64,000 nucleotides of DNA, from the IMG/VR virus record IMGVR_UViG_3300021141_000706, one strand, 5' to 3'. The stretch is from a virus. Position 1 is the stretch's first letter. Every line of letters starts with the position of its first letter. The notes beneath the pieces were generated by a model, which had not been told where the DNA came from, did no database searches, and saw nothing but the letters and a program-made list of their open reading frames with translations. The translations under genes and the position numbers were made by a program. Below, in pieces: positions 4,516 through 29,314 of this stretch.

Positions 4516-5229
4516 ATGAAAACAGCACTTATTCTTTCAGGTCAATTTAGAGAAGCCAAACATTGTTACAAAGGATTTAAAGAAAATATATTAGATATTT
4601 ATAATCCTGATGTTTTTATTAGCACTTGGACTAATCCATTAAATATAACACCAGCTGGTTGGTATGGTAATTATCAAAAAGACGACTGTTCATTACAAGA
4701 TATTATAGAAATGTATAATCCAAGATCAATTGAGCTAGAAACATTTGACAATGATGATTATAAACCATTTAAAAAAATGGGTGATAAATTAGATTCTAAA
4801 ATTAATTACGAAACTAGATCAACAAATGTTAATGCTATGTGGTATAAAAGATATCGATCTAATTTATTAAGAAATCAATTTGAAGAATTAAATAATTTTA
4901 AATATGATGTTGTTATTTCATCAAGATTTGATTTAGAAATTTTAGAACCTTTGAGTTTTGAATTAAAAGGAAGTGAACTTTTAATACCTATTGGGTTTGA
5001 TTGGTGTCAAGGAATAAGTGATTTATTTGCTGTAGGTAACTCCGATACAATGAATGAATATTTTGATGTATATAATTTAATGGAGTACTATAGATTGGAA
5101 AAAGATGTACATGCTTGTCCTGAATCAGTGATGAAATATCATGTTTATCATAAAAATTTTGAACTTAATAGATTCTTATTAAAGTGTAGACTTAGAGGAT
5201 CAAATGTATGGGAATCTGCTTTAAGTTAA
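4516..5229 (+). CDS. Putative glycosyltransferase (ALILSGQFR type), paralog of the N-terminal domain of 60241
   Basis: LSGQFR, DVFISTW, YDVVISSRFDL, SDLFAVG, ESVMKYH. Confidence 0.55.
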   Translation: MKTALILSGQFREAKHCYKGFKENILDIYNPDVFISTWTNPLNITPAGWYGNYQKDDCSLQDIIEMYNPRSIELETFDNDDYKPFKKMGDKLDSKINYETRSTNVNAMWYKRYRSNLLRNQFEELNNFKYDVVISSRFDLEILEPLSFELKGSELLIPIGFDWCQGISDLFAVGNSDTMNEYFDVYNLMEYYRLEKDVHACPESVMKYHVYHKNFELNRFLLKCRLRGSNVWESALS

Positions 5230-5279
5230 ATATTTTTATTATTTTTGTAAAAAAATATCAAAAGAGATAAAAACTTTTT

Positions 5280-5287
5280 AATATATA
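5280..5287 (+). promoter_or_regulatory. AATATATA putative phage late-promoter motif (representative of about 16 copies)
   Basis: Found just upstream of starts at 5280, 9441, 12761, 14431, 18960, 28401, 28859, 31787, 38185 (+) and 9413, 13931, 21694, 25735, 35797, 39711 (-). Confidence 0.6.
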
Positions 5288-5306
5288 CACATACAATAAA
5301 ATATAT

Positions 5307-5378
5307 TGCGGGGTAGAGCAGGGGTAGCTCGCTAGGCTCATAACCTAGAGGTCGGAGGTTCGAATCCTTCCCCCGCTA
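5307..5378 (+). tRNA. tRNA-Met(CAT), initiator-like
   Basis: Cloverleaf; ctagg-ctCATaa-cctag; 1:72 mismatch and A11:U24. Confidence 0.9.
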
Positions 5379-5396
5379 CTAAAAAAATAAAAAATA

Positions 5397-5428
5397 TTTG
5401 GTGAATTGAAATTGTCACCGTATATTTG
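5397..5428 (+). promoter_or_regulatory. Bacteroidota primary-sigma promoter upstream of leader 1
   Basis: TTTG(5397-5400)-N20-TATATTTG(5421-5428). Confidence 0.7.
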
Positions 5429-5461
5429 TAAAAGAATTAAAAACTATAAAAAACTAAAACA

Positions 5462-5539
5462 ATGACAACAATTACTAACATAGCGTATTATTATGAGGGA
5501 GAGCGTGGCTCAAACGTCAGACTAATGTCTATGTCGTAA
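5462..5539 (+). CDS. Attenuator leader peptide 1 (MTTITNIAYYYEGERGSNVRLMSMS), Tyr/Glu-sensing
   Basis: 25 codons with TAT TAT TAT GAG GGA GAG; contains gtcagact complementary to the terminator arm; Tyr/Glu tRNAs downstream. Confidence 0.8.
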   Translation: MTTITNIAYYYEGERGSNVRLMSMS

Positions 5540-5561
5540 TGGAATCATTATGATATTAACT

Positions 5562-5594
5562 AACCCAGTCTGACTTATCAGACTGGGTTTTTTG
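5562..5594 (+). terminator. Attenuator terminator 1
   Basis: aacccagtctga-ctta-tcagactgggtt plus T-tract. Confidence 0.85.
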
Positions 5595-5608
5595 TTTTAA
5601 ATTAAATT

Positions 5609-5699
5609 GGGAGTGTAACGTCAGCGGCATGTAAGCCGCCCCTCGTAAATATATGGCGTATGGCTTGAGGTAACTAGTGTTCGAATCCTGGTACTCCCA
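5609..5699 (+). ncRNA. Non-canonical tRNA-like RNA (Tyr-like GTA in a 6-nt loop, no clear D arm)
   Basis: Acceptor gggagtg/tactccc, TTCGAAT T-loop with bulged stem, gcggc-atgtaa-gccgc hairpin. Confidence 0.55.
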
Positions 5700-5705
5700 C
5701 AAAAT

Positions 5706-5777
5706 GGTCCTGTCGACTAATGGTCAGGTCAACACCCTTTCAAGGTGTAGATGCGGGTTCGATCCCCGTCGGGACTA
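5706..5777 (+). tRNA. tRNA-Glu(TTC)
   Basis: acacc-ctTTCaa-ggtgt; cloverleaf. Confidence 0.92.
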
Positions 5778-5784
5778 CAAATAT

Positions 5785-5867
5785 GGGAATGATGTGACAC
5801 AGGTAGTCACGCTAGTCTGTAAAACTAGTGCCTTCGGGCGTTGCGAGTTCGAGTCTCGCCATTCCCA
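5785..5867 (+). tRNA. tRNA-Tyr(GTA)
   Basis: ctagt-ctGTAaa-actag; long variable arm. Confidence 0.92.
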
Positions 5868-5885
5868 CAAAAAAATTAACAAATG

Positions 5886-5916
5886 TTTGGATAATTAAAA
5901 AATATCCTTATCTTTG
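5886..5916 (+). promoter_or_regulatory. Internal Bacteroidota-type promoter before the second Glu/Tyr tRNA pair
   Basis: TTTG(5886-89)-N19-TATCTTTG(5909-16). Confidence 0.65.
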
Positions 5917-5932
5917 TAAAAGAATAAAAAAT

Positions 5933-6004
5933 GGTCCGTTAGTGAAGCGGTTAACACGCTGCCCTTTCACGGCAGAGGCACGGGTTCGAATCCCGTACGG
6001 ACTA
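5933..6004 (+). tRNA. tRNA-Glu(TTC)
   Basis: ctgcc-ctTTCac-ggcag. Confidence 0.93.
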
Positions 6005-6010
6005 CAATAT

Positions 6011-6093
6011 TGGAAGGTGGGTGAGTGGTTAAAACCGACAGACTGTAAATCTGTTCTCGCAAGAGTACGGGGGTTCGAATCCCTCCCTTCCAA
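6011..6093 (+). tRNA. tRNA-Tyr(GTA)
   Basis: acaga-ctGTAaa-tctgt; variable arm. Confidence 0.93.
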
Positions 6094-6159
6094 CAAAAAT
6101 TAAAAATAACTAAAAAGGGAGTTAAAACTTTTTATATATACATTAATATAATTAAAACG

Positions 6160-6240
6160 ATGAAAAATTTAAATAACATATCAACAGCGAAAATAGGAGG
6201 CGGCGCGGGAGCGAATGTCACTGGCTGGATTATGTTGTAA
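6160..6240 (+). CDS. Attenuator leader peptide 2 (MKNLNNISTAKIGGGAGANVTGWIML), Gly/Ala-sensing
   Basis: GGA GGC GGC GCG GGA GCG run; tggctggatt pairs with the terminator 5' arm; Gly/Ala tRNAs downstream. Confidence 0.8.
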   Translation: MKNLNNISTAKIGGGAGANVTGWIML

Positions 6241-6263
6241 TTTTTTATCAAAAGAATTAAACG

Positions 6264-6295
6264 AAACCCAGTCAATCAAATGACTGGGTTTTTTT
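6264..6295 (+). terminator. Attenuator terminator 2
   Basis: aaacccagtca-atcaaa-tgactgggttt plus T-tract. Confidence 0.85.
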
Positions 6296-6304
6296 ATTTT
6301 ATAT

Positions 6305-6394
6305 TGGCGAATAGCAGTGGTGTCTTATACACACTATACCTGTAGCGGTAACTTGAGATAGTATCAAACGTGGGTTCGAATCCCACTTCGCCAA
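6305..6394 (+). ncRNA. Non-canonical tRNA-like RNA (possible TAT anticodon arm, no clear D arm)
   Basis: Perfect acceptor tggcgaa/ttcgcca and T arm gtggg-ttcgaat-cccac; atypical core. Confidence 0.6.
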
Positions 6395-6402
6395 CAAAAA
6401 TT

Positions 6403-6474
6403 GCGGGTATCGTATAACGGTTATTACTCCACACTTCCAATGTGGAGATCTCGGTTCGATTCCGGGTACCCGCT
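6403..6474 (+). tRNA. tRNA-Gly(TCC)
   Basis: ccaca-ctTCCaa-tgtgg; U73. Confidence 0.93.
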
Positions 6475-6484
6475 CAAAACATAT

Positions 6485-6560
6485 GGGGTTACATGTTCCA
6501 AGGCTTAGGCGAGTTTGATTTGCGATCAGACTGTGGTGGGTTCGATTCTCACTAGCTCCA
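6485..6560 (+). tRNA. tRNA-Ala(TGC)
   Basis: Loop ttTGCga; G3:U70. Confidence 0.8.
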
Positions 6561-6579
6561 CAAAAAATAAAAAACGAAT

Positions 6580-6753
6580 ATGATAGTATTCAAAAACATA
6601 ATTGATAATAAAACCTATATAATCTATAAGGCACCAAATGGTAATTGTTTAGCAATTCCATTTAGACACGATGGTCCTTCTATCCCTAAATGTGATATGA
6701 AAGAATTTGTGGTTGTAAGCTCTGAAGATGGTAGATTAGATGGGTTTTTATAA
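6580..6753 (+). CDS. Small hypothetical protein (57 aa, MIVFKNIIDNKTY...)
   Basis: Clean ORF between tRNAs; below the ORF-track cutoff. Confidence 0.55.
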   Translation: MIVFKNIIDNKTYIIYKAPNGNCLAIPFRHDGPSIPKCDMKEFVVVSSEDGRLDGFL

Positions 6754-6762
6754 TAGTAAGAT

Positions 6763-6882
6763 ATGGAAAAGAAGATAGTATTAACAGGAGAGTTTGAGTC
6801 AAGTAAAAAGAATTTGGGAAGAGACATAAGTAAAAATGGATTGGATAAATTTATTAAAAGACTTATAAAGAAGAAAAAGTAA
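6763..6882 (+). CDS. Small basic hypothetical protein (39 aa)
   Basis: MEKKIVLTGEFESSKKNLGRDISKNGLDKFIKRLIKKKK. Confidence 0.45.
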   Translation: MEKKIVLTGEFESSKKNLGRDISKNGLDKFIKRLIKKKK

Positions 6883-6887
6883 AATAA

Positions 6888-6959
6888 GCGAAAGTCGTAT
6901 AGTGGCTATTATATCGCCTTGCCAAGGCGAGGACGGGAGTTCGATTCTCCTCTTTCGCT
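6888..6959 (+). tRNA. tRNA-Gly(GCC)
   Basis: tcgcc-ttGCCaa-ggcga; U73. Confidence 0.93.
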
Positions 6960-6978
6960 CAAAAAATAATTATTATGG

Positions 6979-7347
6979 ATGAAAATATGTCCTAATTGTG
7001 AAAAGGTTGTTACCAAAAGAAATAACAAATACTGCGATGCTAAGTGTCAAGTAGAATTTGTAAATAAAGGTATCTATGAGAACATAGAAAATGGAGACAC
7101 AACTCTTTATCATAAGACATATAAAAGACATCTTATCATCAAATATGGTGAAAAATGTATGGAATGTGGTTGGGATAAAGTAAATCCATCAACAGGTAAA
7201 GTTCCAATACAATTAGAACATATAGATGGTAACTCGGATAATAATTCTTTAGATAATTTGAAATTACTTTGTCCAAATTGTCATTCACTAACACCAACAT
7301 ATGGTGCTTTGAATAAAGGAAATGGACGAAAGAATAGAAAAAGATAA
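6979..7347 (+). CDS. HNH endonuclease inside the tRNA array
   Basis: CPNC..YCDAKC, CMECG, LEHIDGNSDNNSLDNLKLLCPNCH. Confidence 0.9.
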   Translation: MKICPNCEKVVTKRNNKYCDAKCQVEFVNKGIYENIENGDTTLYHKTYKRHLIIKYGEKCMECGWDKVNPSTGKVPIQLEHIDGNSDNNSLDNLKLLCPNCHSLTPTYGALNKGNGRKNRKR

Positions 7348-7387
7348 ATGCCGGATGATCCACCGTTGAATCACGGTGCCGGCTCCA

Positions 7388-7461
7388 GGGGAATTAGCTC
7401 ATTTGGCTAGAGCGTTTGAATGGCATTCAAAAGGTGACGAGTTCGATCCTCGTATTCTCCA
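7388..7461 (+). tRNA. tRNA-Ala(GGC)
   Basis: tttga-atGGCat-tcaaa; G3:U70. Confidence 0.88.
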
Positions 7462-7466
7462 CAAAT

Positions 7467-7498
7467 AAAAAAGTCCAGTTATTTAACTGGACTTTTTT
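7467..7498. terminator. Bidirectional intrinsic terminator
   Basis: aaaaaagtccagtt/aactggactttttt between convergent units. Confidence 0.8.
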
Positions 7499-7540
7499 AT
7501 CTTAAATCAAAGACTATAATTTCTGATTCTTTTTTTAATT

Positions 7541-8527
7541 TTATCGGTTTGTCCAATATCCATTAGTACTCAACCAAGCCTTAGCCAATGTGACACCACC
7601 AGCATCTAAAGCAAATGATTGATTGAATTTTTTATTAACTAAAGTAGCAAAAGAAGCATCTGAAGTATCTGTTGATCTAAGAAATCCAACTGAAGCGGTA
7701 GTTTTACCTAAAAAATTATATCCACTTGGATATCCATATAATGGAATATTTAAAACTTCCATTACTCCATAAATATAAGGACACAAAACTGGATAATAAC
7801 CAGGAGCTGAAGAATTAGTTAAGACGAAAGTTGAAATGTCTACACCAACACTTGATGTTGATGGATCTGAGCCAGCATAATTATTCCAAAGACCACCATT
7901 AACTCTTACCCACAATAGTGATAAATCATAATTAATAGCAACATCAATCACATCACCATTGGTCCAAGTAGGAAGACTAGTACCGGATAATAGTTGTGGA
8001 GCTGTAGTTTCGACACCAGTACTAAAATAAAGTTGACCAAAATCTGATAAGCCAATGCTACGCTCATCAGCACCGCCCGGATAACCACCAAAAGGCCCTG
8101 AATAATCCATATCTGTTAACCCAATGCCAATAAAACGACCACCAGCACCAACAGTTGACTGTGTTGAAGTAAATTTAACACTAAACATTACTTTATCACC
8201 GTCAGAAATAATAGTTTGTCCTAATACTGATTGTTGATATGAAAATATTTGAGTAGCTGTTTGATTGTTATTACTTAAAACAATATCAGTTGCCTTATAA
8301 GTTGTGCTTAAAAAAAGATTATCACCAGGAACAGGAGTTGGTTGATTATCCAAAGGAACAGGTTTAGCTATTAGCCATCCACTGCCTTCTCCAGGTCCAT
8401 TCCACCATTCTAATCCAGTAGATTCAAATCCAGCTGTTGGTGTCCCAACTGCTAAATCTCCTACTTGAGTTGTTCCGGCTATTGGTGCTCCGGTGTTGTA
8501 TGCGAACGGTCTACTTCCTACTGCCAT
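7541..8527 (-). CDS. Putative virion protein with SPRY/B30.2-like domain
   Basis: GDVIDVAINYD..LLWVRVNG SPRY-like motif; G/T/S-rich; RPFAYNTG...WWNGP N-terminus. Confidence 0.55.
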   Translation of the reverse strand: MAVGSRPFAYNTGAPIAGTTQVGDLAVGTPTAGFESTGLEWWNGPGEGSGWLIAKPVPLDNQPTPVPGDNLFLSTTYKATDIVLSNNNQTATQIFSYQQSVLGQTIISDGDKVMFSVKFTSTQSTVGAGGRFIGIGLTDMDYSGPFGGYPGGADERSIGLSDFGQLYFSTGVETTAPQLLSGTSLPTWTNGDVIDVAINYDLSLLWVRVNGGLWNNYAGSDPSTSSVGVDISTFVLTNSSAPGYYPVLCPYIYGVMEVLNIPLYGYPSGYNFLGKTTASVGFLRSTDTSDASFATLVNKKFNQSFALDAGGVTLAKAWLSTNGYWTNR

Positions 8528-18804: not shown

Positions 18805-18967
18805 TTTGGTAGTTTAAAAATACCTCCATATATTTGTAAAACAATTGAGAGAGGCAACGATTCAGATACAACTTTCAATTATTTTATAAAAAAATTAGGT
18901 GAAATTAAAACTTTTATCTATATTTGTATAAAATAAGTCAAAAGGAACAAAAAACTTTTAATATATA
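18805..18967 (+). promoter_or_regulatory. Stacked promoters for the large tRNA array
   Basis: TTTG(18805)-N20-TATATTTG(18829), second TATATTTG(18919), AATATATA(18960). Confidence 0.65.
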
Positions 18968-28793: not shown

Positions 28794-28866
28794 TTTGACA
28801 AATTAAAACTTTGTTGTATATTTGTATAAAATAAGAACAAAAGGAAGAAATCCTTTTTAATATATA
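28794..28866 (+). promoter_or_regulatory. Host-type plus late-type promoters for leader 4
   Basis: TTTG(28794)-N19-TATATTTG(28817); AATATATA(28859). Confidence 0.65.
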
Positions 28867-29042: not shown

Positions 29043-29116
29043 CGGGTAGTGACTAAGGTTTTAAGCACGGGGGCTCTGGAGGCTTCAGTTAGTCGGTTCG
29101 ATTCCGACCTACCCGA
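29043..29116 (+). tRNA. tRNA-Pro(TGG), atypical anticodon loop (C33)
   Basis: C1:G72, A73; ggggc-tcTGGag-gcttc. Confidence 0.7.
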
Positions 29117-29159
29117 CAAAATACTCTTTAGAGAATAGAGTAAAAGAATTCTCAAATAC

Positions 29160-29238: not shown

Positions 29239-29309
29239 GGTCCTGTAGTTAAACGGCTATAATGTCGCCCTGCACGGCGAAGTTCGGAGTTCGATTCTCC
29301 GTGGGACCG
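29239..29309 (+). pseudogene. tRNA-Asp-like with 6-nt anticodon loop (ctgcac)
   Basis: Asp-type body with G73; loop is one T short of ctgtcac. Confidence 0.65.
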
Positions 29310-29314
29310 CAAAA

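Follow-up and report, generated by a model that had tools for sequence, protein, structure and literature searches.

The DNA analysed here, referred to as the window, is the 64,000-nucleotide stretch of IMG/VR virus record IMGVR_UViG_3300021141_000706, in which ARAGORN called 32 tRNA genes grouped in three regions. The window is AT-rich (29% G+C), belongs to a huge lake-water phage, and is present in many lake and freshwater metagenomes. Its closest public records are the uncultured phage genomes LR745206 (634,780 bp) and LR756502 (642,428 bp), and these two were used for comparison together with record G001. At position 6160 begins a short element, here called leader 2, which consists of a 26-codon open reading frame (ORF) and an intrinsic terminator and is followed by five tRNA genes (one of them tRNA-like), an HNH endonuclease-like gene, and two small ORFs; the unit contains no synthetase gene (Table 1). 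The first tRNA-like gene starts just 12 nt past the terminator, which leaves no room for a bypass promoter. The original prediction for this locus, made without database searches, had read the arrangement as an attenuator, and our analysis supports that reading: an ORF, a run of cognate codons, a terminator, and an antiterminator that depends on ribosome position are all found, and they are conserved in 8 homologous leaders. Leader 2 is thus likely to be a ribosome-mediated (leader-peptide) transcription attenuator that has tRNA genes as its cargo.

Table 1. Features of leader 2 and the unit behind it (positions in the window)
Feature	Position	Strand	Basis or detail
Promoter-like motif, AAACTTTTTATATATA	6125..6140	+	Motif scan; conserved in leader-2 homologs
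1:2 hairpin (anti-antiterminator), ORF start paired with ORF end, including the AUG and region 2	6159..6249	+	Minimum-energy fold
Leader ORF, 26 codons, MKNLNNISTAKIGGGAGANVTGWIML	6160..6240	+	ATG at 6160, stop TAA at 6238-6240
Regulatory codon run, ATA GGA GGC GGC GCG GGA GCG	6193..6213	+	Each codon read by a tRNA of the unit
Region 2, antiterminator 5' strand, UGGCUGGAUU	6222..6231	+	Pairs with 6265-6274
Intrinsic terminator, 12-bp stem, 6-nt loop, U tract	6263..6299	+	Stem 6263-6292; fold and terminator search
Aberrant tRNA-like gene, anticodon loop CUUAUAC (Ile-UAU)	6305..6394	+	Rfam tRNA, 34.3 bits (cut-off 29)
tRNA-Gly(UCC)	6403..6475	+	ARAGORN, Rfam
tRNA-Ala(UGC)	6485..6561	+	ARAGORN
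Conserved small ORF, 57 aa	6580..6753	+	41% identity, E = 1e-13, to an LR756502 ORF
Small ORF, 39 aa, putative	6763..6882	+	ORF list
tRNA-Gly(GCC)	6888..6960	+	ARAGORN, Rfam
HNH homing-endonuclease-like gene, 122 aa	6979..7347	+	PF01844, E = 6e-5
tRNA-Ala(GGC)	7388..7462	+	ARAGORN, Rfam
Closing terminator	7469..7496		Terminator search; fold of -19.1 kcal/mol

Within the leader ORF, GGA GGC GGC GCG GGA GCG occupies 6196-6213 as predicted. It is preceded by ATA at 6193, and additional cognate codons lie outside the run at 6178 (ATA), 6187 (GCG), and 6223 (GGC). ARAGORN calls and wobble rules bore out that these codons are read by the downstream Gly and Ala tRNAs, with GGA read by the UCC anticodon, GGC by GCC, and GCG by UGC; Ala(GGC), which had also been placed in the array and was called there by ARAGORN, is needed by no leader codon. 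The proposal of a Gly/Ala sensor was correct in naming the Gly and Ala codons and too narrow in naming these alone. AUA belongs to the sensor as well, since the Ile(UAU)-like gene is the first behind the terminator and AUA codons are present in 8/8 of the homologous leaders, and leader 2 accordingly reads as an Ile(AUA)/Gly/Ala sensor, not one for Gly/Ala only.

Codon usage in the window's own 42 long ORFs was taken as the reference for the composition of the leader. On this basis, a matched run of seven codons has a probability of ~9e-6, and 10/25 leader codons match tRNAs of the unit where 12.5% would be expected (p = 5e-4). All three Ala codons of the leader are GCG, which accounts for 5% of Ala codons in the long ORFs (p = 1.5e-4), and none of its five Gly codons is GGT, though GGT makes up 63% of Gly codons (p = 0.007).

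The stop codon of the leader ORF lies 22 nt upstream of the terminator stem, and the terminator hairpin alone folds at -17.2 kcal/mol. Its 5' arm, aacccagtca at 6265-6274, is common to the terminator and to an antiterminator in which it pairs with region 2. The original prediction of a 9/10 match between tggctggatt and this arm, including one G-U, held base by base: eight Watson-Crick pairs and one G-U pair (6224-6272) form, with a single mismatch (6229 x 6267). The duplex is predicted at -11.5 kcal/mol, compared with a shuffle mean of -6.7 (z = -2.1; equalled by 3.6% of shuffles). At minimum energy (-46.7 kcal/mol, z = -6.7), 6150-6300 folds into the 1:2 hairpin and the terminator. A small local hairpin at 6199-6219 is formed by the GGCGCGGG core.

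Switching was modelled by folding RNA that ended at the terminator loop, with the ribosome footprint forced single-stranded. With no ribosome present, the 5' arm of the terminator was only 5-7% sequestered, so that termination would be expected. When the A site was at or before the Ile/Gly/Ala (I/G/A) run, region 2 sequestered the arm at 0.77-0.8, and the alternative structure with the antiterminator had an energy of -16.3 kcal/mol. When the A site was 2-3 codons past the run, sequestration was at most 0.1, the exact point depending on the assumed leading edge of the ribosome. Under the usual assumption that RNA behind the ribosome may not pair around it, the window leader switches 1-2 codons past the last GCG. 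The modelled folding states of leader 2 follow the classical 1:2, 2:3, 3:4 logic of attenuators.

Homologs of leader 2 (n = 8, including the window) were taken from LR745206 (L001), LR756502 (L011), and the IMG/VR loci L018/L032, L024, L025, L038, and L050 (five contigs). A pattern search of IMG/VR with the terminator arm returned 43 loci, 12 of which have tRNAs behind the terminator, and an exact IMG/VR search with the conserved 23-mer at the 5' end of the leader returned no match. Each of the eight leaders has an ORF of 24-28 codons that contains an in-frame I/G/A run and whose stop codon precedes the terminator by 18-28 nt. The genes behind each terminator include Gly tRNAs and one gene for Ile(UAU), either a tRNA or a tRNA-like form, joined by Ala tRNAs wherever the fetched locus extends far enough. 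Masked-ribosome folding placed the predicted switch point 1-3 codons past the last I/G/A codon in 8/8 homologs.

Antiterminator pairing is likewise kept in 8/8 homologs, and in 7/8 it is in the same register; the duplexes of the family range from -8.9 to -15.2 kcal/mol (z of -1.7 to -4.9). The region-2 core TGGCTG is found in 6/8, L050 has TGACTG, which replaces the G-U pair by A-U, and L024 pairs in another register. For the helix between region 2 and the 5' arm, 77.8% of cells in the alignment are paired, compared with 8-41% in slid registers. The region-2 nucleotides TGGCTGRRTTATG are conserved across the homologs, yet their translation differs: it is ..TGWIML in the window, and most others have ..WLSYVM. 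The cause is a one-base difference that follows the codon run and gives the window and L050 a frame unlike that of the rest. Since these nucleotides are kept despite the change of frame, the constraint on the 3' half of the leader acts on the RNA, and that on the 5' half acts on the codons.

The original prediction looked to covariation of antiterminator and terminator among related phages, and this was borne out in part: the pairing is conserved, but covariation was not observed within the leader-2 family. RNAalifold on the eight homologs gave a consensus of the terminator only (-16.3 kcal/mol, no covariation), and no compensatory, two-sided change was found in the antiterminator helix, a point that counts against attenuation. 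The lack of two-sided changes is due to a terminator arm that never varies, and this invariance is partly by construction, as the arm itself was the search pattern for five of the homologs. What argues for the pairing is its conservation, the frame-independent conservation of region 2, and the matching of leaders to terminators across families described below.

Leader 2 is one of five leader units in the window, which are specific for Tyr/Glu (5462), Ile/Gly/Ala (6160), Met/Asn/Leu/Thr/Val/Ile/Arg (18973), Pro/Asp (28872), and Gln (29422). Every terminator of the window that directly precedes tRNA genes has a leader ORF, and no further leader-like modules were found within the window. Together with those of the relatives, 36 distinct units were collected, and across them the leader amino acids track the downstream tRNAs whatever the sequence of the leader. 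The actual pairing of leaders with arrays gave the best codon match of 120 permutations in the window and of 5040 in LR745206. Duplexes of leaders with their own terminators average -12.6 kcal/mol over the 36 units, compared with -7.9 kcal/mol with foreign terminators, and z is below -2 in 27/36; this preference for the own arm supplies at the cross-family level the covariation that is missing in the leader-2 family. In a profile of 35 units, the share of matched codons is 53-71% at positions -7 to 0 from the structural switch point and drops to 3-26% at positions +1 to +4.

Upstream of leader 2 lies a motif that may function as a phage promoter, as suggested by its position and conservation. 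The form AACTTTT(T)(A)ATATATA occurs at 5272-5287, 6125-6140, 18952-18967, and 28851-28866, in front of a tRNA-Met gene (5307) and of leaders 2, 3, and 4, respectively; by count alone the motif is not above chance in the window (7 found, 4.4 expected). A second motif of the TAnnTTTG type precedes leaders 1 and 3, which points to two classes of promoter among the tRNA units, and from such motifs near some of the tRNA units the host may belong to the Bacteroidota. A sigma-70 promoter scan is not meaningful for an AT-rich phage and was not used. In freshwater metatranscriptome run X16, an identical contig of 210 nt (6117-6326, depth 3.7) starts upstream of the promoter motif, crosses leader 2 and its terminator, and enters the first tRNA-like gene. 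The tRNA-Met(CAT) gene behind the motif at 5272 (5307-5379) has neither a leader nor a terminator in front of it and is the sole ungated unit of the window.

Given these parts, their conservation, and the switch seen in silico, we infer that the leader is translated, that polymerase is coupled to the ribosome, and that a regulatory response results. Transcription would start at the phage promoter near 6125, or read in from the upstream Tyr/Glu unit, and reach the 26-codon ORF. If AUA, GGA, GGC, and GCG are decoded quickly, the ribosome would cover region 2 up to the stop codon at 6238 and the terminator at 6263-6292 would form. A shortage of Ile(UAU), Gly, or Ala aminoacyl-tRNA would instead stall the ribosome within 6193-6213, leaving region 2 free to pair with 6265-6274. 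With the antiterminator formed, polymerase would continue into the tRNA array (Ile(UAU)-like, Gly(UCC), Ala(UGC), Gly(GCC), Ala(GGC)) and its passenger ORFs. In an untranslated leader, the 1:2 hairpin would hold region 2 and transcription would terminate by default. The Ile, Gly, and Ala tRNAs are thus probably made only when ribosomes read those codons slowly, and since the tRNA products would relieve the stall, the circuit would be a negative feedback on decoding capacity.

We also lean, with less assurance, towards a wider reading in which huge phages operate a modular, codon-resolved feedback network. Each block of tRNA genes, along with some synthetase genes, would stand behind its own translated test gene, so that decoding speed is gauged for each codon family and only tRNAs in short supply are topped up. 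Shortage might result from a poor match to the host tRNA pool or from host defences that cleave tRNAs. Within such a network, leader 2 would be the channel for AUA, Gly, and Ala, with its products shutting off their own transcription.

Several observations weigh against attenuation at leader 2. Its antiterminator in the window is modest (z = -2.1), and the specificity for its own terminator is no higher than for 12/24 foreign ones. The default-off 1:2 hairpin is present in only 4-5/8 homologs: it is found in the window, L024, L025, and L050, is weak in L001, and is absent from L011, L018, and L038. If pairing around the ribosome is allowed, switching already occurs past the third Gly codon, which would leave GCG GGA GCG in the terminating zone. 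GCG (1.9 per 1000) and GGC (3.5 per 1000) are rare in the phage's own genes, and their choice could reflect a need of RNA structure instead of tuning. The low-depth X16 contig is the sole trace in an RNA library and could be DNA. Finally, the scheme requires that a ribosome be coupled to the polymerase that transcribes the unit, and this coupling is one that we infer.

The alternative that survives best keeps the same attenuator hardware and changes the signal, which would be amino-acid or charging status or synthetase activity; leader 2 would then be a starvation sensor without feedback from tRNA products. Classical attenuators (trp, his, leu, pheST) do sense charged tRNA, and synthetase or synthetase-like genes occur in related units, with glutaminyl-tRNA synthetase (GlnRS) behind the Gln leader and aminoacyl-tRNA synthetase-like ORFs in the leader-2 unit of LR745206. 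We nevertheless hold this to be unlikely, given that the leader-2 cargo in the window is five tRNA genes with no synthetase and that extra uncharged tRNA would not relieve amino-acid starvation. Charging and tRNA abundance would leave the same marks in the sequence, and both signals may act.

Alternatively, the terminator might be a constitutive insulator that ends the Tyr/Glu unit. The ORF would then be a micro-ORF that is unrelated or present by chance, and the tRNAs would be expressed from another promoter. Terminators between tRNA sub-operons are common, and the antiterminator of leader 2 is only modestly better than shuffles. An insulator does not account for the 12-nt spacing to the first tRNA-like gene, for the conserved promoter-like motif directly upstream of leader 2, or for an ORF, codon run, and spacing conserved in 8 divergent phages with a codon-tRNA match that is the best of all permutations, and we consider this explanation highly improbable. 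Equally doubtful is an RNA-only switch, T-box-like or protein-bound, in which the G/C-rich run is a binding site or structural element of an untranslated ORF: the GGCGCGGG core is conserved as nucleotides in 6/8 homologs, with its local hairpin, and rare G/C-rich synonymous codons were chosen, but all homologs retain the ATG, frame, and stop, in-frame I/G/A codons are present even in L025 and L024, which lack the core, leader amino acids follow the downstream tRNAs in 36 units whatever the sequence, and no T-box or other Rfam leader family matches leader 2. A cmscan of 5200-7600 against Rfam with E up to 1 gave only tRNA hits and matches at chance level, with no leader, T-box (RF00230), or riboswitch family.

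Leader 2, read as a leader-peptide attenuator, can be compared with trpL, ilvL, and pheM, which are ribosome-mediated attenuators of this kind. The in silico behavior of leader 2 in the window resembles that of E. coli trpL in its short ORF with tandem regulatory codons, in its 1:2, 2:3, and 3:4 hairpins, and in default termination when the leader is untranslated (superattenuation). It differs from trpL in that its cargo is tRNA genes instead of biosynthetic enzymes, in that three amino acids are sensed, in its location on a phage, and in showing no sequence or Rfam similarity. The ilvL leader of the enterobacterial ilvGMEDA operon contains mixed Ile, Leu, and Val codons, and shortage of any one can relieve termination; leader 2, with its mixed AUA, Gly, and Ala codons, is similarly multivalent, whereas ilvL controls the pathway that makes the sensed amino acids and leader 2 would control the tRNAs that decode the codons. 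The pheM leader attenuates pheST, whose product belongs to the translation machinery for the amino acid sensed. Synthetase genes are likewise included in relatives of the leader-2 unit and in the Gln unit of the window, although pheM gates a synthetase operon only.

The T-box of Gram-positive bacteria likewise switches between terminator and antiterminator according to the status of a tRNA, and the genes under its control are related to translation. It does so by binding uncharged tRNA through a specifier codon and the T-box motif, with no translation, while leader 2 is a ~140-nt element with a conserved ORF. The E. coli tRNA-Phe genes pheV and pheU were considered as a precedent for attenuated tRNA genes and were rejected, as their upstream regions show plain promoters and no leader ORF. 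To our knowledge, the cargo of described leader-peptide attenuators is always an amino-acid biosynthesis or synthetase operon, and our literature searches found no description of leader-peptide attenuation of tRNA genes. The novelty of leader 2 therefore lies in its tRNA-gene cargo and the feedback this implies, and it has no bearing on the mechanism itself.

Control of tRNA genes is usually placed at the promoter, through growth rate and the stringent response. If the proposed mechanism is correct, tRNA genes that are switched by the speed at which their own codons are decoded would represent a form of regulation new to this class of gene, and for the first time there would be a mechanistic explanation of how the tRNA sets of tRNA-rich phages are dosed. 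It would also make testable the long-standing question of why phages carry tRNAs and when these are used, as each leader names the codons that the phage treats as limiting. Modular, amino-acid-specific units of ~140 nt might find use as natural sensors of translation capacity for particular codons, and the mixture of tRNAs, synthetases, and a TilS-family enzyme in their cargo points to regulons built around single amino acids.

Turning to the genes of the unit, the first one behind the terminator (6305-6394) has almost no D arm and an insert of ~30 nt after the anticodon stem, and ARAGORN labelled it tRNA-???. In 6/7 of the other homologs, ARAGORN called the gene at this place tRNA-Ile(UAU); L024 (5808-5890) has an aberrant Ile(UAU)-like form as in the window. 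The insert has GTAGCGG.AA.TTGA in common with a distant relative, which indicates that the odd tRNA-Ile(UAU)-like form is conserved and not decayed. The 57-aa ORF has its LR756502 counterpart at L011 8793-8981 (62 aa), downstream of the leader-2 tRNA unit, and neither it nor the 39-aa ORF has a Pfam match. The closing terminator is flanked by A and U runs and may therefore act in both directions; the next gene after the unit is on the minus strand (7541-8527).

The HNH gene and the two small ORFs had been predicted to lie in the same unit and to be co-regulated. The HNH call stands with its Pfam match, and co-transcription is supported by position, while the HNH gene itself is most likely a selfish passenger, since relatives carry different homing endonucleases (HNH or GIY-YIG) there. 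Endonuclease-type ORFs were found in the leader-2 unit of L001 (4716-5261), L018 (95-544), L011 (6785-7585), and L050 (5650-6300). Those of L011 and L050 have GIY-YIG Pfam matches, and those of L001 and L018 have no Pfam match and are HNH-like by eye only. This distribution suggests repeated invasion of the tRNA array by endonucleases.

Other cargo in the relatives includes, in the leader-2 unit of LR745206 (L001), a 246-aa ORF with a class-II synthetase core (PF00587) and a 248-aa ORF that matches only the first part of alanyl-tRNA synthetase (AlaRS, PF01411), at 5361-6101 and 6247-6993; both are far shorter than the normal enzymes. A PP-loop ATPase ORF (PF01171, the tRNA-Ile lysidine synthetase or TilS family) is present in the Ile/Gly/Ala unit of L024 (6721-7308) and of L050 (4806-5405, minus strand). 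These PP-loop ORFs adjoin tRNAs labelled Met(CAT) by ARAGORN, with which they may form a set for decoding AUA. In the window, the Gln leader precedes two tRNA-Gln genes and the gene for GlnRS. The non-tRNA cargo of the relatives and of this Gln unit is in keeping with the tRNA theme of these units.

Further tRNA-like stretches were observed behind other leaders of the window. Directly behind the leader-1 terminator, 5597-5700 has acceptor-like ends and a GTA-containing loop and was called by neither ARAGORN nor Rfam. Behind the Pro/Asp leader, ARAGORN called a tRNA with a two-base "anticodon" at 29239-29310 (six-membered loop, CUGCAC), and upstream of it lies an uncalled tRNA-like stretch (29045-29118) whose loop holds UGG (Pro).

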